A stretch of 48,801 nucleotides of DNA from Promethearchaeota archaeon. Its GTDB lineage: Archaea; Asgardarchaeota; Lokiarchaeia; Sigyniarchaeales; SOKP01. Below are positions 12,437 to 46,128 of the stretch, piece after piece. The notes beneath the pieces are model-generated. The model was given only the letters and a program-made list of their open reading frames with translations. It was not told where the DNA came from and made no database searches. Each line of letters starts with the position of its first letter. Position 1 is the first letter of the stretch. Location of the stretch: the NCBI GenBank assembly GCA_019058365.1, contig JAHPZE010000031.1, positions 1 through 48,801 of the forward strand, written 5' to 3'. Position numbers and translations under genes: made by a program.

Positions 12437-12524
12437 TAAATGCTTTAAAATTAAGAAATAAAAATGTTTATTAAAATTAATTAGAATAAGAAACTCAGAA
12501 TAAAAGTACTTTTATGTGAATATA

Positions 12525-14450: not shown

Positions 14451-14584
14451 AATCCTTTTTTTAATTTGAATTGTATATAAATTTAAATAAAAAGCATAAA
14501 TAATTCAAGATATCATATAATTATATTATAAAATTTGAAAAAAACTCATTAATTTTGGAACAAAATCTTTAAAGAAGGAATCAA

Positions 14585-15622
14585 ATGATTGGAAAGGTCG
14601 TTACTTTTGGAGAAATAATGTTAAGACTTTCACCACCTAATTTTAAACGTTTTATCCAAACTCGTTCTTTTGACTTAATATATGGTGGTGGAGAAGCTAA
14701 TGTTGCTGTTTCATTAGCTAATTATGGAATTCCTGTAGATTATATAACGAAATTACCAAATAATGAAATCGGTGAAGCTTGTATTCAATTTCTAAGACAG
14801 TTCGGTGTAAATACAAATAATATTGTCAGAGGAGGAGATAGAATAGGAATATACTTTCTCGAGATGGGATCCTCTATTCGACCAAGTAAGGTTATTTATG
14901 ATAGAGCACATTCAGCTATATCTGAAGCTAATCCTATCGATTTTGATTGGAATAAAGTTTTTGATGGTGCATCCTGGTTTCATTGGACAGGGATTACACC
15001 CGCAATTTCACAGAATTTAGCAAATATTTGTCTTGAAGCTGTGAGAATCGCAAAAAAAAAAACCATTACAATATCTTGCGATTTAAATTATCGTAGCCAA
15101 TTATGGAAATATGGAAAAAAACCAAATGAAGTTATACCTGACTTACTAAAATACTCCGATATTGCAATTGGGAATGAAGAAGATGCTGAAAAAGTTCTGG
15201 ATATTAAAGCTCCCAATACAGATATAACTTCAGGAAAACTTGAAGCTGAGAATTATAGATATGTAGTAGAAGAAATAGTTAGACAATACCCTAACCTAAA
15301 AAAGGTAGCAATTACTCTAAGAGGATCACTTTCTGCGAGCCATAATACATGGTCAGCAATTCTTTATGATGGAACTAATTTATATATTGGTCCTCAATAT
15401 GAAATAACCCCTATCGTAGATAGAGTAGGTAGCGGGGATTCTTTTATGGGAGGATTAATCTATGGACTACTCACATATAAAGATAATCTCCAAATTGCAC
15501 TCAATTTTGCTGTAGCTGCCTCCTGTTTAAAGCACACAATATTGGGAGATTTTAATTTAGTTTCTATTGATGAGGTTGTAAAATTAATGGGCGGTGATGC
15601 ATCTGGCCGCGTTTCAAGATAA
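14585..15622 (+). CDS. kdgK: 2-keto-3-deoxygluconate kinase (PfkB family)
   Basis: FGEIMLRLSP, GGGEANVA, DLNYR, GNEED, DRVGSGDSF, GRVSR. Confidence 0.9.
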   Translation: MIGKVVTFGEIMLRLSPPNFKRFIQTRSFDLIYGGGEANVAVSLANYGIPVDYITKLPNNEIGEACIQFLRQFGVNTNNIVRGGDRIGIYFLEMGSSIRPSKVIYDRAHSAISEANPIDFDWNKVFDGASWFHWTGITPAISQNLANICLEAVRIAKKKTITISCDLNYRSQLWKYGKKPNEVIPDLLKYSDIAIGNEEDAEKVLDIKAPNTDITSGKLEAENYRYVVEEIVRQYPNLKKVAITLRGSLSASHNTWSAILYDGTNLYIGPQYEITPIVDRVGSGDSFMGGLIYGLLTYKDNLQIALNFAVAASCLKHTILGDFNLVSIDEVVKLMGGDASGRVSR

Positions 15623-15647
15623 TTAATTTAAGAGGTTGATAATAATA

Positions 15648-16454
15648 ATGGAAAAAAATACAAAAATTATAATAACTGCTACAACGGCTAATTCTTGGAT
15701 TTATCCTGAAGTTAAAAATTGGGCTCAAACAACTGAAGCATTAATTGAAGATATTGTACAATGTTATGAAGCTGGTGCTGCGGTTGCTCATGTTCATCTG
15801 CCTCGGGGAGAAGAAGTTGAAATTGTTAAACGAATAAGAGAAAGGTGTGATGTTATTATACAAGCAGGGATGTCAAGTGAATCAATCCCTAAAAGAAAAG
15901 GTGATTTTGATGCCAAACCAGATATGATGTCAGTTATATTAAATCACCATTCAGAACATTTTGCTGAAATTACTGTTGATGTATTGCATCCACTTACAGA
16001 ACTTGAAGAATATTGTATAAAATGTAAAGAAGCGAATATCAGACCAGAATGGGAAGTTTGGCAACATGGTTCATATTGGAACTTAAATTATTTAATAGAA
16101 AAAGGATTGTTGGACTGGGCTAAACCACATATCTTGACTTTATTTTTTGATTGGCCCGGTGGAACATGGAGTCCTGCTAATTATGAAGAATACATGCATA
16201 GGAGAAGATACTTACCTCCTAATAGCGTTCATACAGTTAGTGTAATGGGTGAGGAACAAATGAGTCTCTTGGTTTTTGTCCTTACACACGGTGGAAACAT
16301 TCGAGTGGGAACTGAAGATTGTCCATTTATTAAAAAAGGAGTAGTAGCAAAAAATAACGCTGAAATTGTTAAAAATTATGTGAGTATCTGTAAGCATGTA
16401 AATCGAGAAGTAGCTGATCCATCTGAAGCAAGAAAAATGTTAGGAATAGAATAA
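15648..16454 (+). CDS. Beta-keto acid cleavage enzyme (BKACE/DUF849 family)
   Basis: EAGAAVAHVH Zn motif, PEWEV, GGNIRVGTED, NAEIV, EARKMLG. Confidence 0.88.
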   Translation: MEKNTKIIITATTANSWIYPEVKNWAQTTEALIEDIVQCYEAGAAVAHVHLPRGEEVEIVKRIRERCDVIIQAGMSSESIPKRKGDFDAKPDMMSVILNHHSEHFAEITVDVLHPLTELEEYCIKCKEANIRPEWEVWQHGSYWNLNYLIEKGLLDWAKPHILTLFFDWPGGTWSPANYEEYMHRRRYLPPNSVHTVSVMGEEQMSLLVFVLTHGGNIRVGTEDCPFIKKGVVAKNNAEIVKNYVSICKHVNREVADPSEARKMLGIE

Positions 16455-16624
16455 AAAAGTTGTAATTCTCCCTCTATTTTAAAAATTTAGATTTAAATTA
16501 TGATACGTGAACTAATATCGATTTCTAGAAAAGTTCAATAGCTTTATATATATTTAATACAAATGTTTTATCATCATAATTTCTTCTTATGTTAAACAAA
16601 AGCTAAAAGAAGTATTGAGAAAAA

Positions 16625-17515
16625 TTGAATGGTTCTTTTTATTTAATAGGTGTTTTTCTAGCTATATTATCTGGAAGTATAAATAATGTAGGTTTAGTAT
16701 TACAAAAAAAGGTAGTTAATGAAGTACCCCCTGAAGCAAAATTTTTTAGGAGTTTAGTGAAAAATCCTATTTGGATAACAGGAATATTAATGGAGGTAGC
16801 AATAGGTTCAGTTTTTTTTATGATTGCTCAAATTTACATCGGTCCTGCGTTAATACCTGGTTTGATGGCATTCGGTTTAATTTTTCTCGCTATTGGATCT
16901 GTTAAAATTGTAGGTGAAACATTAAAAAAAGAAGAAATTATTGGAATAATTTTAATGATCACAGCAATCTTTTCATTAGGTCTTTCTGAATTGAGTGTAG
17001 ATATCACTGGTATAAATATATTAGCGCTTAATCTTGTGCTTAACATGACTATTTTTACGATTGTTTTATTTTTAGGTACATTCATATGTGAGATTTTGCA
17101 AAGAAAAATTGAAAAATTAAAAGGAATTTTATTAGCAATATCATCAGGATTCCAATTTTCTCTAACTAATTTTTGGATTGCACCATTAATGGCAGTTATC
17201 GCCCATGTTTTTGGAGGAAATGCTACTTTAGGCGAATTATTCTTATTTATAGCATGTGCAATAATTTTAATAGCAGCAAGTATCATAGGGACTATGAAAA
17301 TCCAGCAATCATTCCAAGTAGCTAATGCTAGTCGAATGATTCCCATTCAACAAGTACCTATACAAATAACACCAATAATAGTATACTTTTTTGTTTTCAC
17401 ATTGATGCCTCCAACAATCCTACCGATAATATATGTAATTATTGGTGTTTCTTTAATCCTATTAAGTTCGTTTCTGTTGGCAAAAAGACAAGCCCAATTA
17501 GAAGTTATAAAGTAA
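16625..17515 (+). CDS. DMT-superfamily transporter, NIPA-like, copy A
   Basis: About nine TM helices; LAILSG...LQKK, W..G, GPALI.GL, GETL pattern. Confidence 0.75.
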   Translation: MNGSFYLIGVFLAILSGSINNVGLVLQKKVVNEVPPEAKFFRSLVKNPIWITGILMEVAIGSVFFMIAQIYIGPALIPGLMAFGLIFLAIGSVKIVGETLKKEEIIGIILMITAIFSLGLSELSVDITGINILALNLVLNMTIFTIVLFLGTFICEILQRKIEKLKGILLAISSGFQFSLTNFWIAPLMAVIAHVFGGNATLGELFLFIACAIILIAASIIGTMKIQQSFQVANASRMIPIQQVPIQITPIIVYFFVFTLMPPTILPIIYVIIGVSLILLSSFLLAKRQAQLEVIK

Positions 17516-17525
17516 GGTTGGAAAA

Positions 17526-18344
17526 ATGATAAAAATCTTATTTTTTCAACCACATCCGGACGATTTAGAGTTAAATTGTGGTCATCTCATTCATTATCTT
17601 GCAACAAAAAGTAAAGAGAAGTATCTTATTAAGATTGCCTCTACTACAAAAGGTGAATATGGCCTTCCTGGTGCTCAATATGATAAATTTAAAGGTGATT
17701 TTCTTGCAAAAGTTAGAACTCGAGAATTATACAATGCTTTAAGCATTCATGGAATACCTCCAGAAAATGTTCACTTTTTTGGGTGTGTTGATGGTTTAGT
17801 AGAATTTAATAAAGAATTTGTAAATAAGATTGCAGAGTATTTAAATACTGAAAAGCCTGATATAATTTTCGCACCAGAAGCAATTTACACCTCTTATTAC
17901 CATAAAGATCATGTTAATACGGGTAAAGCTATATATTACTGTATTCATAATAACTTAATTGACTTTACTCCAATACTTTATTTTTACTCGACGCTAAGTC
18001 CTAATTATTTCTTCGGGTTTGCAAAGGAAGAATTTTCTTTAATCGATCAATTACTTGCTTGTCATAAAACTCAATTTTGGTTGATAAATTATGTAACATT
18101 GACATATAAACCAAAAACGATACTAGCAGGAAGGAAGTTAAAAGGTTGGAAATATGCTGAGAAATACAGAAGAATATATTTTCATAAAGAAAATAAAAGT
18201 AAGAATAATCCGTCTTTAATTGTTAAAATGCTAAGCCATTGGTTTTCAAGCATGCCCTTTTTTAAAGCTAAATACCCACAAGATGTATTAGAAGAGCTTA
18301 AAAAAAAAAAGAAAAATCTGAATATTCAAGGAGAATATGAATAA
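17526..18344 (+). CDS. PIG-L/LmbE family N-deacetylase, copy A
   Basis: PHPDDLE, TKGE.G, R.RE, HKDH, HKTQ. Confidence 0.9.
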   Translation: MIKILFFQPHPDDLELNCGHLIHYLATKSKEKYLIKIASTTKGEYGLPGAQYDKFKGDFLAKVRTRELYNALSIHGIPPENVHFFGCVDGLVEFNKEFVNKIAEYLNTEKPDIIFAPEAIYTSYYHKDHVNTGKAIYYCIHNNLIDFTPILYFYSTLSPNYFFGFAKEEFSLIDQLLACHKTQFWLINYVTLTYKPKTILAGRKLKGWKYAEKYRRIYFHKENKSKNNPSLIVKMLSHWFSSMPFFKAKYPQDVLEELKKKKKNLNIQGEYE

Positions 18345-18471
18345 TGCTTTTAGTGTAAAATATGTATAATAAAACTATATAAAGAACAAAAACAAAATAA
18401 TCTCAATATATAATAAAGAATTAATTAAAAAATTTGAAATTATAATTACTAAAAGAATCGAGGTGTATTTT

Positions 18472-18813
18472 TTGGCAACTATTGAAGAAGTTAAAGAAGC
18501 TTTAAATAAATGGGTGAAAGTATTAGACGATCCAGAGCTTGCGGATGAATTTGAAGGATTCAATAAAACCATGCAATTTGAATTTTCAGACTTAAATTAT
18601 AAAGTAAAAATGATTTTTGAAAATAAAAAAGTAAGATTAGAGGAAGGTTTTGACGAAAATGCTGAAATGGGTTTAGAAGTTAATTCTGATCTTTTTGTAG
18701 GTATTGCTACCGGCGAAGTTGATCCAATGGAAGCGTTTATGGAAGGAGAACTTAAAACTAAGGGTGATATGAACTCATTGCAGAGATTAGAAGTCTTCAT
18801 GGACATTGAATAG
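18472..18813 (+). CDS. SCP2 sterol/lipid-binding domain protein
   Basis: DLFVGIATGEVDPMEAFMEGELKTKGD; likely TTG start 6 nt after GAGGTG. Confidence 0.88.
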   Translation: MATIEEVKEALNKWVKVLDDPELADEFEGFNKTMQFEFSDLNYKVKMIFENKKVRLEEGFDENAEMGLEVNSDLFVGIATGEVDPMEAFMEGELKTKGDMNSLQRLEVFMDIE

Positions 18814-18992
18814 CGAAGTTTAGTAAAGATTTTTTTATTTTTTTCAAATACTATTTTTTTTGTTTAGGAAAATGAGAAGATTTAAAGGAGATAATGTTCA
18901 TTAATTTAAAAATTAAAAATTTAGGATTATTGAAAATAAGTATTTTCATAAGAAATATTATAATATAAAAAATTATTCTGGCTTGAGATGAA

Positions 18993-20117
18993 ATGGAACC
19001 AATTGGTTTTAATAAAGAGAGAATATGTAATGTTTTAGAAAAACACGATATAGATGTGCTAATCGCATCTACTCCGGTCAATGTTTTTTATTTATCTGGT
19101 TTACCAACATTACATGTAGCTCCAAATCCTATTTTATATGTATTATATAATCAATACCCAAGTTTATCTTTAGTTCGGAGAGACGGTGAGGAAAGTTTGA
19201 TACTGTGGATTACTTATCGTAGCGTAGATAAATTTTCATGGGTAAGTGATATTCATGGAATAGGATCTCCTAAAGGTGCTATGGTTTCAGTATCTGATAA
19301 GATTGAAGAATGGGGTTTATCAAATAAAAAGATAGGATATGAGTCACTTATGCCTTCTTATCAATCTGAATATTTAAGGGATAAATTTCCAGATGCTACT
19401 TTTATTAATGGGGATCAAGCTTTTTTAGATATGCGTTTAATTAAATCTGAAGAGGAGGTAAAACGAATAAAAAAGTCAACAGAAATTTCTGAAAAAGCTA
19501 TAATGAATATGATTGAAGCATCTTATGAAGGAATTACTGATTTAGAGTTATTACAAATAGCTCGTCGAACAATAGTTAATGCGGGTGCAGAAGGATGGGA
19601 TCATTTAACAATGAATTTGGGACCGTCTGACCCTGAAGCACCAGGAGTCGGAACTACTCTGAAATCAGGAGATCTTAATAGATTTGACATTGGAACTATT
19701 TGGAAAGGATATGTTTCAGATGTGAGTCGAGAGTTAGTGATAGGACAGATACCTCAAGGAGCTGAGGAAATTATGAATAGAGTGATAAAAGTTCAAGAAT
19801 TCTGTGAAGAGAATATTCACCCTAACTTAAATATGAAAGAATTGTATACTAATGCAATTAAATTTCACAAATCTTTAACAACGAAGGCGAGAGTCTTTAT
19901 AACGGGCCATAGTATCGGGTTAGAATGCGAAGAAACTCACTTATTTAGCCCTATAAAGAAATTAGATAAGTCATTTGAAGAAAACATGGTACTTGATATT
20001 GAGATTTGGCAGAATTTTAAAAATCAAGGAATGATGGGAATTGAAGATTGTTATAGGATTACTAATACTGGTTGTGAGAGGCTCTCAAGTTTAGATAAGA
20101 ATATTTTTATTAAATGA
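18993..20117 (+). CDS. M24 (Xaa-Pro peptidase/creatinase-fold) hydrolase, copy A
   Basis: NVFYLSG, MRLIKSEEE, D.G..WKGYVSD..R, GHSIGL, GIED. Confidence 0.88.
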   Translation: MEPIGFNKERICNVLEKHDIDVLIASTPVNVFYLSGLPTLHVAPNPILYVLYNQYPSLSLVRRDGEESLILWITYRSVDKFSWVSDIHGIGSPKGAMVSVSDKIEEWGLSNKKIGYESLMPSYQSEYLRDKFPDATFINGDQAFLDMRLIKSEEEVKRIKKSTEISEKAIMNMIEASYEGITDLELLQIARRTIVNAGAEGWDHLTMNLGPSDPEAPGVGTTLKSGDLNRFDIGTIWKGYVSDVSRELVIGQIPQGAEEIMNRVIKVQEFCEENIHPNLNMKELYTNAIKFHKSLTTKARVFITGHSIGLECEETHLFSPIKKLDKSFEENMVLDIEIWQNFKNQGMMGIEDCYRITNTGCERLSSLDKNIFIK

Positions 20118-20181
20118 AAAAAAACCTAAAAGCAATAAATTGGATTAATTAATTATTGAAAAATTATTGGAGGATAATTAA

Positions 20182-21318
20182 ATGAGTGATTTTGTAAAGT
20201 TTGGAATAATCGGAGCAGGTTCTGCTGTTTGGCGTTACCATAAGCTTGGTACCAAAAATAATCCACGAATAAAATTTGTCTCGGGCTACGATATCGACGA
20301 GAATAAATTAGCAAAAGCTGCTAAATATTCGAAGTTAGAACCTTTTTCGAAATTAGATGAATTCTTAAAAAATGATATTGATGCTGTTATGGTTTTAGTG
20401 CCACATTATCTACACAAAGATTTAGTTATTGCTGTAGCTGAGGCTGGAAAACATGTTATTTGTGAAAAACCTATGGCGACCACGCTTGAGGAATGTGATG
20501 AGATGATTACAGCAACCAAAAAAGCAGGTATTAAATTTATGATTGCAGAGAATCATCGATTCCTACCGGCTCATCAATTTATAAAAGATGTCGTTCAGCG
20601 TGGATTTATTGGAGATGTATTTCTTGGTCGAACTTATGAAGGTGCTTATGCTGCTTCACAATTTTTTAGTGCTGATGATTGGGGTTTTACATACACAAAG
20701 GGTGGTGGTGGTGTAGTTTCAGATCAAGGAGTACATAAATTCACCATGCTAAATTGGATTCTTGGCGAAGTCGATTCAGCTCAATGTTGGTTAAGTAAGA
20801 CATTGAAATCACCCCCTAATAAAGGAGAAGATACAGCCATAATTCTATTACGCTATAAATGCGGAGCTACTGTAACGGTGGATATTTCCTCTAGTACAGT
20901 ACATCCGCTTACAAATAAAACAGAATTACATGGAACAAAAGGTACGATTTTTGAAGATCACGACTGGGAGAGACCTGTTAAAATATTTTCCTCTCATCCT
21001 GAAGCTGAAGTAAAGGGAGCGTATTATAGTCCTGAAATTGAACACGGTCCTTTTCCTGATTATTATAAAATATCCATGGGGCATGAAGATGCATATTTTG
21101 CTGAATGTATTTTAGAAGATAAGAAACCAGAATTCACACCAGAAGAGGCACGACAAGGTGTTGCTGTAGTTCTCTTAGCATACCTGTCTGCTAAAAATGG
21201 AAGAATGACTTCAATGGATGAATTAATGGAAGTTTATAAAAAAGAAGGGACAAGGAGTATATTACAAGGTCTTGGAGAGGTAACACAAAAAAATTATGAA
21301 AAATTGAATTGGGATTAA
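20182..21318 (+). CDS. Gfo/Idh/MocA family oxidoreductase, copy A
   Basis: GIIGAG, PHYLH, GKHVICEKPMA, GGG..D.GVH; SD GGAGG. Confidence 0.92.
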   Translation: MSDFVKFGIIGAGSAVWRYHKLGTKNNPRIKFVSGYDIDENKLAKAAKYSKLEPFSKLDEFLKNDIDAVMVLVPHYLHKDLVIAVAEAGKHVICEKPMATTLEECDEMITATKKAGIKFMIAENHRFLPAHQFIKDVVQRGFIGDVFLGRTYEGAYAASQFFSADDWGFTYTKGGGGVVSDQGVHKFTMLNWILGEVDSAQCWLSKTLKSPPNKGEDTAIILLRYKCGATVTVDISSSTVHPLTNKTELHGTKGTIFEDHDWERPVKIFSSHPEAEVKGAYYSPEIEHGPFPDYYKISMGHEDAYFAECILEDKKPEFTPEEARQGVAVVLLAYLSAKNGRMTSMDELMEVYKKEGTRSILQGLGEVTQKNYEKLNWD

Positions 21319-21345
21319 ATGATAAATTAAATATTTAAGAGAAGT

Positions 21346-23268
21346 TCAAATTTTTCTAATTTTTACCGTATGGATTCCATTTTCTTTAATGACTATAGAT
21401 ACTAATTGATTTTTTTCATCTTTTTGTATTTCACCCTCAGATACATTTATAGTATAACCGTTTGGATAATGAATTTTTGGAATATAAATAACTGTTGAAC
21501 TATTTATGGAAGCATCACCCTCAAACTCAAAATAAAAGAATCCTTCTTTCATTTGGAAATCCATTTTTTTTGGAACGCCAGTACAACGAATGAAATGAGG
21601 ACGACAGAAACCCTTAATTGCCCTTCCACCGCTATTAATATCATTTGGATTAATCTTTTGATCTATACTAAAAATGGACAAATCTTCTAAATTCCATAAA
21701 TCCCCCCATTCGTTAGAATTATCTGGAGTATAATTCCATTGTAATGCGTGTAATAGATTAGCATCTATTGCGTTATAATAATTATTTAATGCTTTTATAT
21801 GCGTTTCCCAGGCTTCATTCGGTTCAGTTTTAAACTTCTTATAAGCTTCTTTATTATTAAGATCAAAAGGTAATCCAAATTCCTCAATTATAGTAGGAAT
21901 GCCCTTAAAAAAAGAATTTGAGTAATCTTTAATATTTTCTAATTGTGAAATGAACATTTGTTTAACATTTTTTTTACCGATGACTGGAGATCCTGTAATT
22001 AGATTATAATTAGCTTTAAGCATTGCTTTTTTTGTACCAGTTGTTGCTACATCATACCAGTGGGCAGCATGTACACTATTAAGTGGTATCTCTAATTCAA
22101 ATGCCTCTCCTTTCATTATACTTTCCATGGGGCCTGTAAGAAATATTATTGCATTTGAAAATACTGTTCGGATCGCTTCAGTATAAGCTTTTAAGAAAGG
22201 AGAAAAAATATCTCGGTAGAAATCAATTTTATCTCCATTTCTATAGAGAAAATATTCATTTTTTAAAATCTTTGGATTTCCAACCTCATCTAATCCCCAT
22301 AAACCCTCTTTTTTCCATACATCTTCAAATCCTTCTAACCAACATGAAATTTTTCCTTGATTCAACTCGTCTTTTCGCGTTTCTTTAATACCAAATCTTT
22401 TTACTTCTTGATATCCAATTGTCCTAGTATATCCTGCTCCAGTAAGTATCGCATCTATAGGAGTAAAAGTATACCCCAACACCTCAGATTTTCCTTCCCA
22501 CTCACTTCCATCCACATATTTACCAATCCAGCCTTCAGGAGGTTCATTTAATATATCAAATCCTAGTATATATGGATTATCTTTTATTCTCGATGCTACT
22601 TGTTTCATAGCATCAAAGAAATGATCCTGAAAGAAATCTTGAGCGTTTTTTCCATCAATTAAACATGAAGGGGCAAAATATTTTCCCCCAAAAAATAAAG
22701 TCCACATTGTTCCATTCGCAAATCTATAAGTATTCCCCGTCCAATGCATTGGAAGATATTTTGTAAGGTCATTAGGGTCATATCTTAGTTGCATTGTAAC
22801 TGCTGCCTCAGAGCTCTCAAATTTAGTGTAATCTAGTCCTACTTTTTCAAATGTCCAACTAGGTGCTCCATCTCCTCCAGTTATTCTACTCCAGACATCC
22901 TGATGAGAATCTATGATTGTATAAAATTTATAATTTTCAGCAATATTTAATATCTCTTCAAGATAATCCAAATATTCTTTATCGTATTTTTTTGGTCCGC
23001 TATGCTCAACTGCTTCCCAAGTTATCAAAAACCTAAGACAATTAAAACCCCAATGCTTTAATCGTGAAAAATGTTCATCTGCGTCCTTTAAAGGAAATGG
23101 ACGGCCAATAAAAGAAACGTTCCTATGATCACTAAAATCTGTTTTTATATGTGTTGCACCATCAGGAGTACAAGGGACTTTACTACTCCCCCCTAAGTTC
23201 ACTCCTCTTAGTAAGACTGTTCGGCCTTTATCGTCAATAAAATGCTCATTTTTAACTCTTAATGTCAT
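21346..23268 (-). CDS. GH5 endoglycoceramidase-related glycosidase, copy B
   Basis: Close paralog of 12525..14450; NEP and EEFG catalytic glutamates. Confidence 0.88.
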   Translation of the reverse strand: MTLRVKNEHFIDDKGRTVLLRGVNLGGSSKVPCTPDGATHIKTDFSDHRNVSFIGRPFPLKDADEHFSRLKHWGFNCLRFLITWEAVEHSGPKKYDKEYLDYLEEILNIAENYKFYTIIDSHQDVWSRITGGDGAPSWTFEKVGLDYTKFESSEAAVTMQLRYDPNDLTKYLPMHWTGNTYRFANGTMWTLFFGGKYFAPSCLIDGKNAQDFFQDHFFDAMKQVASRIKDNPYILGFDILNEPPEGWIGKYVDGSEWEGKSEVLGYTFTPIDAILTGAGYTRTIGYQEVKRFGIKETRKDELNQGKISCWLEGFEDVWKKEGLWGLDEVGNPKILKNEYFLYRNGDKIDFYRDIFSPFLKAYTEAIRTVFSNAIIFLTGPMESIMKGEAFELEIPLNSVHAAHWYDVATTGTKKAMLKANYNLITGSPVIGKKNVKQMFISQLENIKDYSNSFFKGIPTIIEEFGLPFDLNNKEAYKKFKTEPNEAWETHIKALNNYYNAIDANLLHALQWNYTPDNSNEWGDLWNLEDLSIFSIDQKINPNDINSGGRAIKGFCRPHFIRCTGVPKKMDFQMKEGFFYFEFEGDASINSSTVIYIPKIHYPNGYTINVSEGEIQKDEKNQLVSIVIKENGIHTVKIRKI

Positions 23269-23420
23269 TTTAATCAAACTTTATTAGTACATCTTATGAG
23301 TTCTTATCATTGAATTACTCTCTTTCCATTAAAGTTTTATGAAATAAAAATCAAATTTTATTTAATTTCAATAATATTAATCTATACTTATTCAAAATTT
23401 AAAGTAACAAAAATAAAAAA

Positions 23421-37282: not shown

Positions 37283-38308
37283 ATGGTTATAAAAACAAAC
37301 ATAACTGAAATGCTTGGAATTAAACATCCTATTGTAGCGGCACCAATGGGACCTTTTTACACAACAAAACTAACAATTGCTGTCTCAGAGGCTGGTGGAT
37401 TAGGTGTTCTAAGCCACGTAACATTAAGTGAAGGAATCACCTTAAATCAAATGAAAGAAAGTATGAAAACTGTCGTTGAGTTTACTGATAAACCTTTTGG
37501 ACTAAATATTAGAACAACAGCATTGCAACCTGATGCGATAAAACTATGTAGGCAAATTCCTAGGTTTATAATGGACAATCCAAAAATTAAAGATCAATGT
37601 ACCTACTTAATTACAAGTGCGGGATCTCCAAAAATATTATATAACAAGTATTTTAAGGCACTAAAAGAAACATCAAACATCAAACATTTTCATGTTATTC
37701 CTTCTTTAAAGCTAGCTAAAAATGTAATAAAAGATGGTGTTGATGGAATAGTCGCAACAGGACACGAAGGTGGAGGGCACCAATCTTATGAAAATGCAAG
37801 TACTTTAATCCTCTTACAACAAATCAAAAAGGAATTCCCAGAAATTCCTATGATCGCTTGTGGAGGTTATGCAACTGGAGAAGGATTAGCTTCAGCTTTA
37901 GCTATGGGTGCTGGAGCAATTGCTATGGGAACAAGACTTATTGCTTCAAGAGAATGTGAGTTCCATGAAAATTATAAAAATGAGGTTAAAAATGCTAATG
38001 TGTCTGATACCAAAATGGTTACAGGAGTTTTTGGACCTGCCAGAGTATTAAATAATAATTATGCGGAAGATGCAACTACTGTCTTGAATAAAGCAGAAAA
38101 GAGAGCTGAAGAAACCTCTATATCAATAATAAGAGAAAGTGTATTAAAATTAGAGAAAGCATATAACGGAGATGTTGATAATGGTATTATTCTCTTAGGA
38201 CAAAGTTGTGGGCTGGTAAGCGAAATTGAGAGTGTATCAAACATTATCAATTCAATTGTACGTAGTGCTGAAAAATGTCTAAAGACTGCGTATTATATGG
38301 TAAATTGA
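37283..38308 (+). CDS. Nitronate monooxygenase / FabK-like flavin oxidoreductase
   Basis: LGIKHPI..APM, AVSEAGGLG, KPFG.N, EGGGH, GG..TGEG..AL.MGA....GTR. Confidence 0.9.
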   Translation: MVIKTNITEMLGIKHPIVAAPMGPFYTTKLTIAVSEAGGLGVLSHVTLSEGITLNQMKESMKTVVEFTDKPFGLNIRTTALQPDAIKLCRQIPRFIMDNPKIKDQCTYLITSAGSPKILYNKYFKALKETSNIKHFHVIPSLKLAKNVIKDGVDGIVATGHEGGGHQSYENASTLILLQQIKKEFPEIPMIACGGYATGEGLASALAMGAGAIAMGTRLIASRECEFHENYKNEVKNANVSDTKMVTGVFGPARVLNNNYAEDATTVLNKAEKRAEETSISIIRESVLKLEKAYNGDVDNGIILLGQSCGLVSEIESVSNIINSIVRSAEKCLKTAYYMVN

Positions 38309-38338
38309 GATTTGTTAAAAGTAAAGGAGAATTTAAAA

Positions 38339-38578
38339 ATGACTGAATCTATAGTAACATCAATATTCCAAATAACTAATATCGCTGAAATAAACAGTTT
38401 GAGCTTACTTGATTATGAAAATTCTATTATTAATTATTTTAATGATAATAATGGTTCAAACTTTTACCAGCGATATTTTAAATGGTTTAATCATTTTAAA
38501 TTTGAAAAAACCAATACTTCTTTCTTAAAGGATTTTGAAAAATGGTTTCATGATTTTTTTTTTAAATTTGAAATTTAA
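38339..38578 (+). CDS. Small hypothetical protein with aromatic-rich C-terminus
   Basis: ATG preceded by AAGGAG; 79 aa; no recognised family. Confidence 0.45.
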   Translation: MTESIVTSIFQITNIAEINSLSLLDYENSIINYFNDNNGSNFYQRYFKWFNHFKFEKTNTSFLKDFEKWFHDFFFKFEI

Positions 38579-38645
38579 ATCGAAAAAAGGCAGAAGTACT
38601 GAAATGTAAGAAAAAAATTGAATTATAGATTTATTTTTAGTTTTA

Positions 38646-39914
38646 TTATTTAAAATTAATTATCTTTAATTTAAGCTTGTTTACTTCATTAAGATATATA
38701 TTTGAAGCTATAAATGATGGTTCATTCTGTTCTTTTTTCTGTAAAATCTTGATTTTTAATTTATAAGCGTTAATAAGTATTTCTGAACTAATCTTTTCGG
38801 TTGCACTAATAATTACATCAAGAATATGAAGGGCAAGTTGCAGCTTTCCCTCCCCAAAGAGCTTTTTAGCTCGTATATAATATTGCTTAACATCACAAAT
38901 TTTTAAGAATTCGTTAGCTATTTCACTAGTTTTCGCCGGAAAAAGATCTGTAGGATTACCTGTATCATACCATCCATGATATAATCTATAAACTGCATGA
39001 ATAGCAAACCTATAGCATCCATACACTTGTGCTAAGATTTCATGATTAAATTTTTCTGGAAATATTTCAAGCATCTCATGATAGATCTGTTCAAACCATT
39101 TACCTTGATTTAATCGTTTTACAACTTCATCGTGAACAAAATTTAAGACTTCGGCCGTTATTGAAAGAATTTCTTTTATTTTTTCTTTACCTTCAATGAG
39201 GGGCCCTTGACCAGGAATTAAATGCTCTGGCTCTTTTTCAATCATTTTTTCTAATGCTTGAGCCCAATCTTTAGGGTATCTTTGAACTTTATAGGGATTT
39301 CCTACATTGGGGAAAACAGAGATTATGAAATCTCCCGTAAAAAGAACCTTCTCTTCAGGAACAAACATCCAAATTTGATCATCTGTTTCTCCTTTATCAT
39401 GATATAATTCAAAAGTGTATTCTCCCAATCTAAAAGTATAATTTTCATTTCCATGAAGTAGTATCGTGGGATTAAGAGTCTCTTTAGCAGAGTCATATTT
39501 TTTATTCTCACCTAATACAGAACCGAATTGTTGATCATGAAGCCAATTCAAATATTTATCTAACATGCGATACTTTTTGAAACGATCTACTAAATTCTCA
39601 TGGGCTATTACTTGGGGCACTTCCCAGCCTTTTCCTTTAATTTCCTCAAGGAAAGGAAGGTATCCAAAACAATGATCAAAATGACCATGAGAATATATTA
39701 TATATTTAATGGGTCTATCAGTAATCTCCCTAAGTGCTTTAAACACTCGTGGACCATTCAATTTTGAGGATATATCGAATAAGACTAAACCTTTGCTTGT
39801 TTCAACAACTCCCACGTTTGAGAAAGCACTAATTTTATGGAACTTGCCATTGGCAAAGGATTTAGGAGGATACAAACCAAAAAGTAACTTTCTATGTTCT
39901 TCCGTCATTTTCAT
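38646..39914 (-). CDS. Metallo-beta-lactamase fold alkyl-sulfatase-like hydrolase with dimerisation domain
   Basis: YSHGHFDH, GETDD, GDF, PNVGNP, GWY..GNP..L.P; lacks C-terminal SCP2 domain. Confidence 0.85.
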   Translation of the reverse strand: MKMTEEHRKLLFGLYPPKSFANGKFHKISAFSNVGVVETSKGLVLFDISSKLNGPRVFKALREITDRPIKYIIYSHGHFDHCFGYLPFLEEIKGKGWEVPQVIAHENLVDRFKKYRMLDKYLNWLHDQQFGSVLGENKKYDSAKETLNPTILLHGNENYTFRLGEYTFELYHDKGETDDQIWMFVPEEKVLFTGDFIISVFPNVGNPYKVQRYPKDWAQALEKMIEKEPEHLIPGQGPLIEGKEKIKEILSITAEVLNFVHDEVVKRLNQGKWFEQIYHEMLEIFPEKFNHEILAQVYGCYRFAIHAVYRLYHGWYDTGNPTDLFPAKTSEIANEFLKICDVKQYYIRAKKLFGEGKLQLALHILDVIISATEKISSEILINAYKLKIKILQKKEQNEPSFIASNIYLNEVNKLKLKIINFK

Positions 39915-39988
39915 GATAATCACTCATATCTAACTTAACAGTAGTTAATTTTATTGCTTTTTAAAAAGACATTATCAAAAATCTTAAC

Positions 39989-41098
39989 TTAATTAATAAA
40001 TTCAAGGCAAAACTTAATTGCCGGAATTATATGATATGCAATCCCTAAAATGTGTGGACTTAAGCTTATTTTAGGATTATCATAAAGTTCATATTGATGT
40101 GGTATTTTGAATTCATTTAATGTTTCATGAATTTGTTGTGTAGCAATTGCAGAACCCATTTCATCATTTCGAGCACAATTAATCATAAGATGAACTTTCT
40201 TTAATGTTTCTGAACGCTTTTTAATCAAATTACTTATATTATACCTCATCCAGTTATTTAGCGAATCTTGGTTTAAGTATATTATTTTCCCGTTTTCATC
40301 ACGCTTAATTGATGGCAACAAAGGATTTTCTTTTGAAAAAATAAGATCACACGTATCTAAAATGTCTGCCCACGTTTTCTTACCCATTCTTTTTGAGATT
40401 TTCTCACCAAAGAGTAGCTTATTTAGAGGAACAATAAGTTGCCAATCTATTAAATCGGGAACTAGATTCCCCGGACTTAGAGCCACAGCAGCAATAAACT
40501 TTTCGGGGTAAGAAAGACATAATCTCAATGCTCCAGCACCTCCCATAGAACCACCTAATACAGCACGATACTCCTTATCAGGAATCGTCCTATAAGAGGA
40601 ATCTATATATTCCAAAATGTCCCGTGCAATGTAATCTTTATAATTTCCTGAGAAGGGAGAATTAATGTAAAAACTTCCTTTTGTAGCGGGCTCACCACGC
40701 AAATTTTTAGTATTGTTGATATTAGGAATATGGAGACTTGCATCCGGTTGAACTAAAATGAACGGTTTTAATTCTCCACTTTCAATTAGGCCATCTAATT
40801 TCTCATAAGTAATCAAATTATCCAAATCAATTTTATCCAATATCTTTTTTGGAATGCGATCTAATGGAATAACTGTTTCATTCTCATTACGAGATGTGAT
40901 TGTCCAATTATGATTATTTCCACCATATCCATGTAAAAAGTAAAGTACAGGATATCTTGGATCCGTTGAATCAAAATAATTTGGGGGTAAATATATGCGC
41001 AAATCACGATTTACTGAACTATTAAGTGGATTATCTTCTAAGCTTTTTGCGCGAAAATTATCGATAATATATCTTTTATTCTGTTGTTTTATGGACAT
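39989..41098 (-). CDS. Esterase (alpha/beta hydrolase, Fes/XynC-like)
   Basis: IYLPP.Y, YPVLYFLHGYGG, GGSMGG. Confidence 0.88.
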   Translation of the reverse strand: MSIKQQNKRYIIDNFRAKSLEDNPLNSSVNRDLRIYLPPNYFDSTDPRYPVLYFLHGYGGNNHNWTITSRNENETVIPLDRIPKKILDKIDLDNLITYEKLDGLIESGELKPFILVQPDASLHIPNINNTKNLRGEPATKGSFYINSPFSGNYKDYIARDILEYIDSSYRTIPDKEYRAVLGGSMGGAGALRLCLSYPEKFIAAVALSPGNLVPDLIDWQLIVPLNKLLFGEKISKRMGKKTWADILDTCDLIFSKENPLLPSIKRDENGKIIYLNQDSLNNWMRYNISNLIKKRSETLKKVHLMINCARNDEMGSAIATQQIHETLNEFKIPHQYELYDNPKISLSPHILGIAYHIIPAIKFCLEFIN

Positions 41099-41153
41099 GG
41101 GAAATCATTATGTGATAAATCTAATTATATTAATTTTAAAATAAAATATTAAT

Positions 41154-42602
41154 TTATAATCCAATTTCCTTTAGTTCTTCTGTATTCCTAAGCGCGTTTT
41201 CTTTCTTTATAGTGTACATCAGAGTGAATATAATCATTCCTATGAGCATTATAAAGAATGGAATTAAGCTAATTTGAACTAGTAATCCTATATATGCTGT
41301 TATAGTATATGTACTCGGATCGCCAGACGCAAAACCAGTAAAGAGCGATACTATCGCAAAAATCAAGGTTTGGAGAGCATAGGAATAAGCTGTAAAAATC
41401 CTTAAGATTCCATAATAAGTACCTTCTTCTCGTTTACCCGATTTAATAACCGCATTATCAATTGCTTCAGCACCTATATAAATTCCAGTAACAATTACAC
41501 CACCATAACTAAGCCCTCCAAAGATACAAAAATAATTCAAGAAAGTAACTGGTAATATAATTATAGAGAATAGCAATAGGAAAAACAAACTAAATAAAAT
41601 TAAACTAAAAATCCCACATTTTCTAGCTCCATACTTCTTTACTAAGGGTATAAAAAGTAATGATCCCACAAAAGTCATTATTAGAACTATTAATTGCGGA
41701 AGTATTGCCTTAAAAGAATCTACTTCATAACCAAGTCCGTCAAAGAAGAAAAAGGGTAATCCGTTTAAAAAGCAGATTCCAGCGATGGAGTACAATGTGA
41801 ACATAATAACATATGCCATCCAATTTCTATCCGTGAAAATTCTAATCAGACTTTCTTTAATTGCAGAATAGCTTTTCCTTGCTTGGTCTAATTGCACTCT
41901 GAATGCTCGAATCTCTTTATTTTCATAAACACCATAAGAGAATGGAATTAACATTATGTAAAATAAAATTGTACATATTATTACGGTTCCTAAATACGCA
42001 TCGGGATCATCCAATCCACCTAATCTTCCCAAAATTATGGGAATAGTAATTGCAGGGATAATAACCTGATAAATGATGCTTATAATCTGACCTGCTCTTA
42101 TACTCTTACTGCGCTCGTTTTGAGTTCTGAATAAATCTGGAAATAGAGCAGATTGATTTATCTCAGATGTCGTTCCAAATGTCTCAAAAATGCACATCAT
42201 TACGATTAACCAAACAATTGAGAGTGTTAAATTACCTGGAGCATTTAAGACATCAGAAATTGGGATAAAGCAAAAAATCAAGAATATTGGTTGAAAAATT
42301 CGACCTAATAGTATCCAAGGAAATCGTTTTCCATATTTCTTAGTAAATCTAGTTGAGCGATCAGCAAAATAACCTATTATTGGGTCGTTAAATGCATCAA
42401 CTGTAGAATATATAAGATATATCATGAAAATTGTAATCTGAGGAATTAATAAGATATGGGCCGAAAAGTATTGTATTCTACCCCACAAGTTTGTCATTAT
42501 TAATCCAACAGGTCCTCCCAATGCCCATGCCCAATATTTTACTTCCTTATGAGGAGTTCTAAAACGTAAATTAGTATCATTCAATTTGTTAGATTGTGAC
42601 AT
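41154..42602 (-). CDS. MFS GPH-family transporter
   Basis: DAFNDPIIG..ADR, GKRFPW, SGKREEG.YYG; about twelve TM segments. Confidence 0.88.
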   Translation of the reverse strand: MSQSNKLNDTNLRFRTPHKEVKYWAWALGGPVGLIMTNLWGRIQYFSAHILLIPQITIFMIYLIYSTVDAFNDPIIGYFADRSTRFTKKYGKRFPWILLGRIFQPIFLIFCFIPISDVLNAPGNLTLSIVWLIVMMCIFETFGTTSEINQSALFPDLFRTQNERSKSIRAGQIISIIYQVIIPAITIPIILGRLGGLDDPDAYLGTVIICTILFYIMLIPFSYGVYENKEIRAFRVQLDQARKSYSAIKESLIRIFTDRNWMAYVIMFTLYSIAGICFLNGLPFFFFDGLGYEVDSFKAILPQLIVLIMTFVGSLLFIPLVKKYGARKCGIFSLILFSLFFLLLFSIIILPVTFLNYFCIFGGLSYGGVIVTGIYIGAEAIDNAVIKSGKREEGTYYGILRIFTAYSYALQTLIFAIVSLFTGFASGDPSTYTITAYIGLLVQISLIPFFIMLIGMIIFTLMYTIKKENALRNTEELKEIGL

Positions 42603-42805: not shown

Positions 42806-43894
42806 TTATTTTTGATTTTTTAAATATTCATGCATTTCAACTAATGTACTTGTTCTTATTAGAGCAGCTTTAAGAAATTGGAATCCAATATCGTAAGTTG
42901 AACCATCCCCTCCAATATGTATAACATAAGGTATTTCTCCATCAAATAAACCCTTTGCTTTAAGTATTTTATATGCAGTGCTTATTCCATCTGCCACAGT
43001 TGCACCAGATTCGAATAGATGATGAACCCATGGCACACGCCAAGAACTTACATTATCCTTTGAAGTCGATACTTCCGAGCATGATGTATTGTTTACATAA
43101 ATGATATTATCACCTGCAACATGAGTTGCTGCTGTAGCCATTTGATTTAATACCATTCCTGCTCCACATCCAGGGCAGAGTCCATGCCCCGGGGATAAGT
43201 GTGTTTGCGGTTTTAATACTTTTCGGTTTATTCGATAAATATCAATTAGTTTATCTGCCCCAAATTGCTCTATTAAACCTTTTACTTTTTTATTTCTTTG
43301 TTCTGTAAAATATAATATTTCATCAATTTCCTTTTCCATGAATTTTGGTTTGAATAAATGCCTGAATCGACCCATTGACTTCAAATATTCAACGAATTTA
43401 TCTTTATCTATATCTAATCCTCTATAATATGAGAATGTTGGCATTCCATCCTTTACACGAATAGTATATAGTGGCCAATACCCACAATCTGTTGCTAATT
43501 TCGATATTTTAACCGCATCTTCTGCTGCATGTCTCCATCCTCTCATACAATCAGAGTAAGCTTGAATAAAAGATGAACCATTACTTTTTAAAGCTTCTAT
43601 AATTTTTCCCATAAAATCATTTGGATAAGCAGGGTTTACAGTTGCTAAGAATAATGAATTTGAACCATAGAAAGCAAAAGGAGTAACTAAATCTTGTTTT
43701 ACTCCGACTTTTCCAGGTATCTTCTCTCCTGCGGGACCCGTTGTCGTGGATGCAAAAGGGGGTGTTCCTCCACTTTCTTGTATACCAGTATTCATAAATG
43801 CTTCATTATCATAATTGAAGAATAATACATTATTTTTTCCATCTCTTGCTAATAAATCCTCTAATTTTATTATATTCCTTTCTGGTTGCGACAT
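42806..43894 (-). CDS. porB: Pyruvate/2-oxoacid:ferredoxin oxidoreductase beta subunit, circularly permuted
   Basis: YDNEAFMNTGIQ, SDCMRGW and WPLY in the N-terminal half; PGHGLCPGCG, NTSC and GGDGSTYDIGFQ in the C-terminal half. Confidence 0.9.
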   Translation of the reverse strand: MSQPERNIIKLEDLLARDGKNNVLFFNYDNEAFMNTGIQESGGTPPFASTTTGPAGEKIPGKVGVKQDLVTPFAFYGSNSLFLATVNPAYPNDFMGKIIEALKSNGSSFIQAYSDCMRGWRHAAEDAVKISKLATDCGYWPLYTIRVKDGMPTFSYYRGLDIDKDKFVEYLKSMGRFRHLFKPKFMEKEIDEILYFTEQRNKKVKGLIEQFGADKLIDIYRINRKVLKPQTHLSPGHGLCPGCGAGMVLNQMATAATHVAGDNIIYVNNTSCSEVSTSKDNVSSWRVPWVHHLFESGATVADGISTAYKILKAKGLFDGEIPYVIHIGGDGSTYDIGFQFLKAALIRTSTLVEMHEYLKNQK

Positions 43895-43895
43895 T

Positions 43896-45125
43896 TTATC
43901 TATTTACCCCCAAAATTTTTTCCTTTGATTCCCTTACACCGAGATAAGAATAAAGGTCTCCTTTCATATCCGTCACAGATTCCATTTTCTTTTTTGCAAC
44001 AGTAAACTCATCTCTTGTAACATCTCGACCCCCTAAACCTACAATAAAACTTCTAAATATTGTTCCAAGGGGATATAAAGCTGAAGCGATTGTCATTGAA
44101 AATGGAGGTAATAGTCCGTTTAATGAATCTGATTTTTCAAATATAATAAGTTTCTCAATATTGTGGTCCTGTACTATTTTTTGTAATTCTTCATAAGGAA
44201 ATGGTCTATAAGCACGTATTTTTATCAAACCAACATCTTTATTTTTTGTCATCCAGCTTATTATGTTCCCACACATAGATCCCATTGTAAGAAATGCAGT
44301 TTTTGACGAATTATCAAGATTGAAAGTTTCAATTAAATCATATTCACGTCCAGTAGCGCTCGCAAAATCTTTAAAACATTTTTTCATCATTCCTAATACC
44401 GGTTTTTTATCTTCCTCCAATCTCATTCTACCCTCCATGAAATAATCAGGAGTTACGATTCCACCCCAAGTGCCTGGCTTTTCGGGCGTTATATGATGTC
44501 TTGGCTTTTTTGGAGTCAAATTTCTAACGATTTCATCCGGGATGAGAGTAAGATTCTGTACTGAATGAGAAATAATAAAACCATCATGTACAAACATTGT
44601 AGGAAAAAGAGAATCTTCTGAAATCATAACTGATATGATAGCAGCATCATAAGTTTCTTGTACGTTTTCAGATACAATACAATTCCACCCTAATTCTGAA
44701 TTTGTTTGTACAAATTCCCAACTATTCCAAATTGACAAGTTGGGAGAATTAAACGCTCTCGCTGAAATCATCATAGTTAAAGGTACTCGCCATCCTACAG
44801 CCATAGGTAATGCTTCAGTCATCAATAAATAACCCTGAGAAGCTGTAGCAGTAAAAGTTCTAGCTCCAGCTGCACAAGCTGCTGTTGAATAGCTTATTGC
44901 TGCTAATTCTGATTCAACATTTATAAATGCTGCTTTTAATCTTCCGTTATTAACTACATCAGATAATCCTTCAACTGATTGAGTTTGAGGTGTGATTGGA
45001 AATGCACAAATAACATCTGGATCTGTTTGTGTTACTCCGCCTGCTACAGCATAATTACCTATCATCGTAGTTTCAATAGGTTCTTTAATTTCCTTGAAAA
45101 AAATACGCATTGGTTCTACACTCAT
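43896..45125 (-). CDS. porA: Pyruvate/2-oxoacid:ferredoxin oxidoreductase alpha subunit
   Basis: GNYAVA, FPITPQT, VESE, TATASQG, DGF..SH, GLGGRD; start at MSVEP after SD GGAGGTGA. Confidence 0.92.
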   Translation of the reverse strand: MSVEPMRIFFKEIKEPIETTMIGNYAVAGGVTQTDPDVICAFPITPQTQSVEGLSDVVNNGRLKAAFINVESELAAISYSTAACAAGARTFTATASQGYLLMTEALPMAVGWRVPLTMMISARAFNSPNLSIWNSWEFVQTNSELGWNCIVSENVQETYDAAIISVMISEDSLFPTMFVHDGFIISHSVQNLTLIPDEIVRNLTPKKPRHHITPEKPGTWGGIVTPDYFMEGRMRLEEDKKPVLGMMKKCFKDFASATGREYDLIETFNLDNSSKTAFLTMGSMCGNIISWMTKNKDVGLIKIRAYRPFPYEELQKIVQDHNIEKLIIFEKSDSLNGLLPPFSMTIASALYPLGTIFRSFIVGLGGRDVTRDEFTVAKKKMESVTDMKGDLYSYLGVRESKEKILGVNR

Positions 45126-45129
45126 TGAA

Positions 45130-46128
45130 CTATTCACCTCCACTTTCTTCTGGTACCGCACAAGATGCGGGACTTTGTTTTAATTTCTTACTTATAGCTT
45201 CTACAGGACATATATTTATACAATTCTGACATGATTTACAATGAAAACTATCTATTCCCGCCATATGCCATAATCCATCATCTCCCTTCTCTCGAACTAT
45301 CGCGAAATCTGGGCAAATATACCAACATTGAGCACAATCAGTACATTTTTCTTTATCCCATATGATGTCCCATTCACCCCACGTTCCCGTCATTACCTGA
45401 GAACTTCCATATGGAATGATATTTTCGTCACAATACCATACTCCTGCCTTATCCATCTCTTTATATCCAGGTAATCCAGGTTTTACTTGTTGCCAGGGTA
45501 CTTTTGTATCTAAAGAAAAATCTATATCAATTCCAAGATCATACAAACAAGTCTCTTCAATAGCTTGTTTTATAGCTTGGATATTTTTCCCCGCAATTTC
45601 TCCTTTAAATCTCCTCATAATAGCATCAGATATCTCATCTAATGTAAAGAGATGGGATACTCGAATTAAAGCACCTAAAATTATAGTATTTGTTATATTT
45701 CTGCCAAAAGTCTCCAATGCGATTCTCGTTGCATCAATTGTTGCCACATTTATATCTTTTCTTCCAACCACTTCTTGGATGGATGCTTGATCCATAACAG
45801 TATTTACAATTAACCAACCTCCTTTAGGCATTCCAGCTGTTACATTAATTTCTCCTAAAAGAGATGGATCTAACACAGAAACAAAATGAGGTCCATAAAC
45901 TTGTTCATTGTTTCGCACTAAATCTTCATTTGCAGATAGTCTAACATAACTTTCCGTTGGGGAACCCATTCTTTCCGCTCCAAAAAGAGGTTGACAGACA
46001 CCATAACCATAAAAAGCTTCTACACATAAATTAGAAGCTGTAACTCCACCTTGTCCTCCTCTAGCATGAAATCTAAGATTAATTACATCATTTTTTAAAA
46101 CTTCTTTAACTTGTTCTGGAGTTAACAT
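45130..46128 (-). CDS. porC: 2-oxoacid:ferredoxin oxidoreductase fused gamma-delta subunit
   Basis: RFHARGGQGGVT, FGAERMGSP, NTIILGA, then TG.W and two CxxCxxCxxxCP ferredoxin motifs. Confidence 0.9.
   Translation of the reverse strand: MLTPEQVKEVLKNDVINLRFHARGGQGGVTASNLCVEAFYGYGVCQPLFGAERMGSPTESYVRLSANEDLVRNNEQVYGPHFVSVLDPSLLGEINVTAGMPKGGWLIVNTVMDQASIQEVVGRKDINVATIDATRIALETFGRNITNTIILGALIRVSHLFTLDEISDAIMRRFKGEIAGKNIQAIKQAIEETCLYDLGIDIDFSLDTKVPWQQVKPGLPGYKEMDKAGVWYCDENIIPYGSSQVMTGTWGEWDIIWDKEKCTDCAQCWYICPDFAIVREKGDDGLWHMAGIDSFHCKSCQNCINICPVEAISKKLKQSPASCAVPEESGGE

Follow-up and report, generated by a model that had tools for sequence, protein, structure and literature searches.

A class-wide circular permutation of PorB that divides the thiamine diphosphate-binding motif in Asgard archaea

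Gene organization at the locus

The DNA analysed, hereafter the window, is a stretch of 48,801 nucleotides (positions 1-48,801 of contig JAHPZE010000031.1, assembly GCA_019058365.1) from Promethearchaeota archaeon (Asgardarchaeota; Lokiarchaeia; Sigyniarchaeales; SOKP01). It carries a three-gene run in the order fused gamma-delta, alpha and permuted porB. The permuted porB is a single minus-strand ORF from 43894 to 42806, encoding 362 aa with zero internal stops, and its start lies 1 bp beyond the porA stop; an intact ORF 1 bp from porA, as originally predicted, was thus confirmed on the sequence. The parts of the locus are listed below.

45130..46128, minus strand: fused porC-porD (gamma-delta), a CoA-binding domain and a 2x[4Fe-4S] ferredoxin domain
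43896..45161, minus strand: porA (alpha), its start probably the ATG at 45125
42806..43894, minus strand: permuted PorB (beta, PFOR domain VI), 362 aa, from profile and pairwise matches
43838..43894, minus strand: new N-terminal segment, aa 1-19, resembling the canonical start segment (IIKLEDLL), then a conserved Arg
43262..43837, minus strand: canonical C-terminal half, aa 20-211, with DNEAFMNTG, C116 (fourth Fe-S ligand), WPLY and the old C-terminal helix
43790..43810, minus strand: D29-N35, back half of the ThDP/Mg motif, from alignment and invariance
43235..43261, minus strand: short join of the old C- and N-termini, aa ~212-220, bridged by independent contigs
42854..43234, minus strand: canonical N-terminal half, aa 221-347, with C240, C243, C272, E274, WVHHLFE, GDG and a helix ending at R347
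42902..42910, minus strand: G329-D330-G331, front half of the ThDP/Mg motif, from alignment and invariance
42806..42853, minus strand: new C-terminal tail, aa 348-362, and stop, with a dN/dS of 0.055 and a predicted alpha contact

When the protein was compared with the NCBIfam PorB model NF008819, aa 20-193 matched model positions 118-285 (E 3e-37) and aa 225-352 matched positions 6-122 (E 1e-25). The Methanosarcina acetivorans PorB (9bt4_C) gave the same picture, with aa 22-194 aligned to residues 118-283 (E 3e-26) and aa 228-347 to residues 5-115 (E 7e-21), and the halves were likewise swapped in the comparison with the beta subunit of the Moorella oxalate oxidoreductase (OOR). Together, the blocks cover the canonical subunit in swapped order, well past chance. 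Being one ORF with swapped blocks that tile the parent, the protein has the sequence layout of a natural circular permutant. The motif positions given in the original prediction were all confirmed (DNEAFMNTG at 29-37, C116 in SDCMRGW, WPLY at 140-143, C240/C243, C272 and GGDG at 328-331), as were the swap of the halves and the retention of all four [4Fe-4S] cysteine ligands (C116, C240, C243 and C272). It had also been claimed that the ThDP motif is divided between the termini, and GDG indeed lies near the C-terminus (329-331) and DNEAFMN near the N-terminus (29-35).

The permuted PorB is approximately 50-60 residues longer than that of M. acetivorans. A linker had been placed at aa 200-230. 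However, the canonical C-terminal helix extends to about position 209-211 and the canonical start segment picks up again at approximately 221, so that most of this region is old sequence and any new linker has at most about 10 residues. At the edges of the join, F211 is nearly invariant and Y220 is invariant.

A scan for promoters gave no surplus over shuffled sequence. Downstream of the operon, positions 37283-42602 hold nitronate monooxygenase-like, alkyl-sulfatase-like, esterase and MFS genes with no obvious link to it. Elsewhere in the window are an HpaB-family gene (877-2415; 4-hydroxyphenylacetate hydroxylase or 4-hydroxybutyryl-CoA dehydratase-like) and a carbohydrate degradation region (10817-23277) with a GH20 hexosaminidase and two GH5 enzymes bearing C-terminal GH5 domains.

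Distribution of the permuted gene

Every one of the 121 near homologs, which range from 55 to 100% identity, shows the same swapped order. The original prediction had proposed a search of other Asgard genomes; when 400 of them were searched in six frames, the permuted gene was recovered in 129 of the 161 genomes of the class (a hand count at a threshold of E<1e-100), covering all seven families, and in only one of the 239 genomes from other Asgard classes. This single outside copy (genome G075) sits on a 2.8-kb contig, is 76-87% identical to the window's protein and accompanies a normal PorB of that genome; it was taken as bin contamination.

Since the metagenome bin that contains the window is 6.6% contaminated, a chimeric contig had to be considered. 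However, besides the agreement of the 121 homologs, five single-contig genomes carry the gene, including that of the cultured Promethearchaeum syntrophicum MK-D1 (CP042905.2), and contigs from three other sequencing runs span positions 43200-43300, where the internal junction had been flagged for checking. Because the homologs, the single-contig genomes and the bridging contigs agree, misassembly is refuted and its probability is negligible.

Named records with the permuted gene are labelled Promethearchaeota/Lokiarchaeota and Helarchaeota, and the MK-D1 ortholog, DSAG12_00808, is labelled 'hypothetical protein' at NCBI. In a profile search of 1.84 billion protein representatives, the best 150 matches contained two permuted clusters, both of this family, and 130 sequences in normal order; no other permuted or duplicated PorB family was present among these 150.

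The enzyme is not carried by every member of the class. Three genomes of 98-99% completeness (G179, G182 and G199) contained neither the permuted beta nor its alpha, and the whole operon has probably been lost from them. The existence of near-complete genomes without the operon suggests that the permuted enzyme is dispensable in places. In another genome (G270, L216:2950-3030), gamma-delta and alpha are intact and beta ends after approximately 26 codons, followed by AT-rich DNA; the break is either a deletion or a misassembly. Extra partial 3' copies of the permuted gene were seen downstream of the operon at L187:3050-3406, L158:6114-6275 and L200:3-347 and 1063-1638, and those in L187 and L158 share 76-86% nucleotide identity with the main copy. 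An apparent alpha-beta fusion in genome G258 was explained as an N-gap artefact.

Family assignment and phylogeny

The permuted PorB scored 214 bits on NF008819, below the family cut-off of 405, and normal-order Asgard orthologs scored 329-403. Its halves scored 128 and 90 bits on the PorB model versus 119 and 63 on the VorB model. The contiguous GDG-x(24-27)-N motif and the canonical block order were absent. Since both the contiguous motif and the cut-off score were lacking, the protein was filed as a variant of PorB. It fell outside the VorB-like clade in the joint and half trees, and an assignment to oxalate oxidoreductase failed, the alpha subunit keeping the Thr and Arg of pyruvate:ferredoxin oxidoreductase (POR). 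This alpha scored 290-316 bits on PorA_Arch, compared with 460-522 for other Asgard alphas, and its ESEH is changed to ESEL.

Before the joint tree was built, the permuted halves were computationally restored to canonical order. The permuted proteins then formed one clade among PorB-type sequences (SH-aLRT 100), its stem measuring 0.89 changes per site, and each half alone recovered the same clade at 100/100, outside the VorB-like group. Support for the VorB-like clade itself was 100/98 with the Y half and weaker, 65/36, with the X half. A Jordarchaeia-like copy appeared as sister in the joint tree (SH-aLRT 90); it was absent from this position in the half trees and was not retained. The gene order gamma-delta, alpha, permuted beta held in 63 of the 63 loci showing all three genes (80 loci examined), and gamma and delta were fused in every permuted-operon locus showing both. 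In other Asgard classes, PorB has the normal order and gamma, delta, alpha and beta are four separate genes. The trees and gene orders indicate that the permutation arose once, at the base of the class, and that the gamma-delta fusion arose alongside it.

The source genome has two normal-order paralogs on another contig (C39), both of which score better on the VorB model and are placed in the VorB-like clade, and the permuted gene is its sole PorB-clade copy. Across the class, a normal-order PorB-clade gene was found in only 2 of 161 genomes, as a 500-aa fusion. Because of this rarity and the VorB-like nature of the paralogs, the permuted gene is regarded as the PorB of the class and not as a spare copy.

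Several neighbourhoods were recorded in passing. The 500-aa normal-order PorB has an N-terminal iron-sulfur extension (L217:800-3933 in G178; L218 in G235), and in G178 it lies directly upstream of the gamma-delta gene of the permuted operon. The two VorB-like operons of the source genome are L031 and L032. Beside L032 are a gene similar to phosphofructokinase and a cluster with the look of a three-gene defence or mobile locus, encoding an ATPase-like protein of 591 aa and proteins of 100 and 296 aa. In MK-D1 and G135 (L183 and L203), the permuted porB is followed downstream, at a short distance, by a histone gene.

Conserved residues, selection and expression

Among 116-147 permuted sequences, C116, C240, C243, C272, E274, G329-D330-G331, N30, A32 and N35 were invariant or nearly so. 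In the alignment with the Desulfovibrio africanus PFOR, C240, C243, C272 and C116 correspond to C812, C815, C840 and C1071, D330 to D963, and N30, A32 and N35 to T991, V993 and N996, residues which we take to be the cluster, Mg and substrate ligands. The alpha subunit retains the PITP Thr, the ESE Glu and the substrate-site Arg (FPITPQ in 35 of 35 sequences, with the SARA-type Arg kept), whose roles are presumably those of T31, E64 and R114 in the D. africanus enzyme.

The dN/dS values, calculated from 20 disjoint pairs, were 0.051 for the front block and 0.048 for the back block, 0.10 for the old C-helix with the join, 0.055 for the new tail and 0.15 for the new start. The permuted PorB is under strong purifying selection. 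Canonical PorB has 102 conserved positions; at 40 of these, many of them near the cut, the permuted form differs or is variable, with S>K342, E>I346, R>E40 and K>Q67 among the substitutions.

In MK-D1, where the three genes are DSAG12_00808-00810, the RPKM values were 286 for the permuted beta, 372 for alpha and 314 for gamma-delta. As the neighbouring genes reach 150-200 RPKM, the operon is only modestly higher, and expression lends modest support. A contig from an RNA run extends across alpha and beta; it is approximately 89% identical, comes from a relative and is no proof of transcription. The MK-D1 authors list the three genes as PFOR EC 1.2.7.1, with the order unremarked (PMC7015854 Suppl. 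Tables).

Predicted structure and function

An AlphaFold2 model of the permuted PorB built from 116 sequences reached a pLDDT of 86.8 and a pTM of 0.90, replacing a poorer one from 28 sequences (pLDDT 74.7). In the model, the site of the cut falls between helix 336-354, which follows GDG, and the strand at 23-29 leading into DNEA. Structural matches to PFOR and OOR beta gave Z 12.6-14.4 and rmsd 2.6-3.7 A over 173-189 residues, where the aligners follow chain order and thus match one half at a time; in such single-half alignments of models, the X half reached a Z of up to 14.4 and the Y half an rmsd of 2.1 A over 121 columns. The permuted chain is predicted to fold into a normal domain VI.

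The alpha-beta complex was modelled with a score of 0.83 versus 0.00 for the best control, at least 95% contact agreement between runs and a partner pLDDT of at least 89, although this score may reflect likeness to solved PFORs, alpha-beta being a textbook pair. The mark applied was reached by 58 of 80 solved pairs and 2 of 110 mismatched pairs. In the modelled interface, the ESE loop of alpha faces beta 339-347, and the new tail (355-358) also touches alpha. The change of beta E346 to I/V and that of alpha ESEH to ESEL fall in the same patch and may be compensating.

With the cut in the loop between the post-GDG helix and the DNEA..N strand, both halves of the motif would meet at Mg and the diphosphate, and C240, C243 and C272 together with C116 would bind the proximal [4Fe-4S] cluster. 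The usual PFOR cycle would then follow, with a ThDP ylide, decarboxylation and a radical, electrons passing to ferredoxin through three clusters and the acyl group being transferred to CoA. We consider it likely that the protein is functional, as the beta subunit of a 2-oxoacid:ferredoxin oxidoreductase that has three chains, belongs to the archaeal POR clade and acts most likely on pyruvate and perhaps on other small 2-oxoacids. That the enzyme is active is very likely, and that it is of the pyruvate type is probable. The earlier claim of a functional-looking gene accords with the conserved ligands, the dN/dS of approximately 0.05 and the partner subunits.

It is highly improbable that the protein is a conserved relic that has lost catalysis or serves a non-enzymatic role, such as a scaffold or sensor. 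A universal motif is split, invariant canonical residues close to the cut are missing and the whole operon is absent from some near-complete genomes, all of which might be expected of a relic; against this, every cofactor ligand is invariant though its neighbours changed, dN/dS is approximately 0.05, and the set of partner subunits is complete with intact Fe-S motifs. The active permuted enzyme might instead differ from POR in substrate range or direction (e.g., 2-oxobutyrate, broader 2-oxoacids or mainly CO2 fixation), a property gained during fast evolution on the stem. The long class stem and the 40 of 102 changed positions in beta mean that the substrate range could have shifted, and the ESEL change and low PorA_Arch score of alpha, as well as the emergence of the gamma-delta fusion together with the permutation, point the same way. 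Nevertheless, the known pyruvate-site residues (alpha Thr and Arg; beta N35) are retained, PorB is the best model for both halves, and almost all genomes of the class have no other PorB-clade copy, so that we regard this shift as unlikely. More tentatively, the permutation, the gamma-delta fusion and a co-evolved alpha-beta interface could together have changed how the enzyme behaves (in substrate range, direction, assembly or oxygen sensitivity) beyond neutral re-wiring, in what would be the first natural permutation through a ThDP-binding motif; we hold this possible but rather doubtful.

Origin of the permutation

The permutation could have arisen through a tandem duplication of porB, a read-through fusion of the old C-terminus to the old N-terminus, an in-frame deletion inside copy 1 that retained its start segment, and the loss from copy 2 of everything beyond the GDG helix. 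When windows of the protein were ranked with a profile of the canonical start segment, the new N-terminus (IIKLEDLL) was first of 351 at +4.8 bits and position 221 was fourth, by a profile that was designed after inspection of the sequence and whose first version gave a three-way tie. In both models, residues 8-9 of the permuted PorB are aligned to positions 2-3 of OOR beta. With a profile built on the ALERG junction, the new C-terminus came first and the new N-terminus fifth of 351, at -14.6 bits. The echo of ALERG that had been proposed for the new N-terminus is therefore weak, and the canonical start segment fits better. This greater resemblance to the old start suggests duplication with an internal deletion; of the proposed duplication followed by trimming, the duplication stands as part of the likeliest origin, and simple trimming of the ends gives way to a deletion inside the gene that spared the old start.

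Fission of the gene followed by refusion, or a cut-and-paste move of its N-half, would account for the lack of a duplicated intermediate among the best 150 of the 1.84 billion protein representatives, and the kept start also fits an excision of the N-half with reinsertion at the 3' end. However, a motif like the start segment is present at two places, position 8 (rank 1 of 351) and position 221 (rank 4), the old termini are joined almost seamlessly, and no confirmed split-gene relatives were found, although half-length matches occur in the profile search. We judge these routes possible but less probable, and slightly favour the origin by duplication, fusion, internal deletion and truncation of copy 2.

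Comparison with known systems

The circular permutation through the ThDP motif is real, ancient and class-wide, and it is apparently undescribed so far. The original prediction knew of no described permuted PorB, and our searches likewise found none in the literature covered, which leaves out most subscription journals. The known diversity of OFOR and PFOR enzymes concerns subunit number, domain order and fusion (PMC13768988, section 3), and the same 2026 PFOR review makes no mention of permutation, Asgard or Loki and describes no internal rearrangement of domain VI (PMC13768988).

For ThDP enzymes, GDG...N serves as the textbook signature and is regarded as one contiguous motif. The class-wide permutant indicates that its halves can occupy opposite chain ends, and provides a ready test of how motif connectivity relates to cofactor loading and radical chemistry. 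Annotation is also affected: NCBI labels the gene 'hypothetical' in MK-D1 and in other genomes, its scores fall under family cut-offs, and a genome scan with Pfam TPP_enzyme_C missed it. These archaea, to which 2-oxoacid oxidation is central (PMC7015854), probably have the permuted form as their main POR-clade enzyme. As a rare genomic change found in each of the seven families of the class, genomes labelled Helarchaeota among them, the permutation can serve as a phylogenetic marker.

M. acetivorans PorB (9bt4 chain C, NF008819) is the best sequence match for both halves (structural Z 12.8) and has the same four Cys, GDG and DNEA..NTG, in the gene order gamma, delta, alpha, beta. In contrast, the permuted form has swapped halves, a cut inside the ThDP motif and fused gamma and delta, and the SGAxERGH of M. 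acetivorans is replaced by KAAxxR and the new tail. The nearest relatives in the tree are normal-order PorBs of approximately 310-335 aa from other Asgard classes, Bathyarchaeia and Thermoprotei, which share the operon position and the RHLFKP C-terminal region, but have separate gamma and delta genes and 37-46% identity per half. The Moorella thermoacetica oxalate oxidoreductase (5c4i/5exd/5exe) also has three chains with a fused gamma-delta (beta Z 12.6-12.8), whereas its beta is in normal order and the enzyme is CoA-independent; the active site of its alpha has Arg and Asp where POR has Thr and Arg. The top structural matches are domain VI of the single-chain PFORs (D. africanus 1b0p and Moorella 6cin, Z 13.8-14.4), and the ligand positions of the D. 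africanus domain align one to one with those of the permuted PorB.
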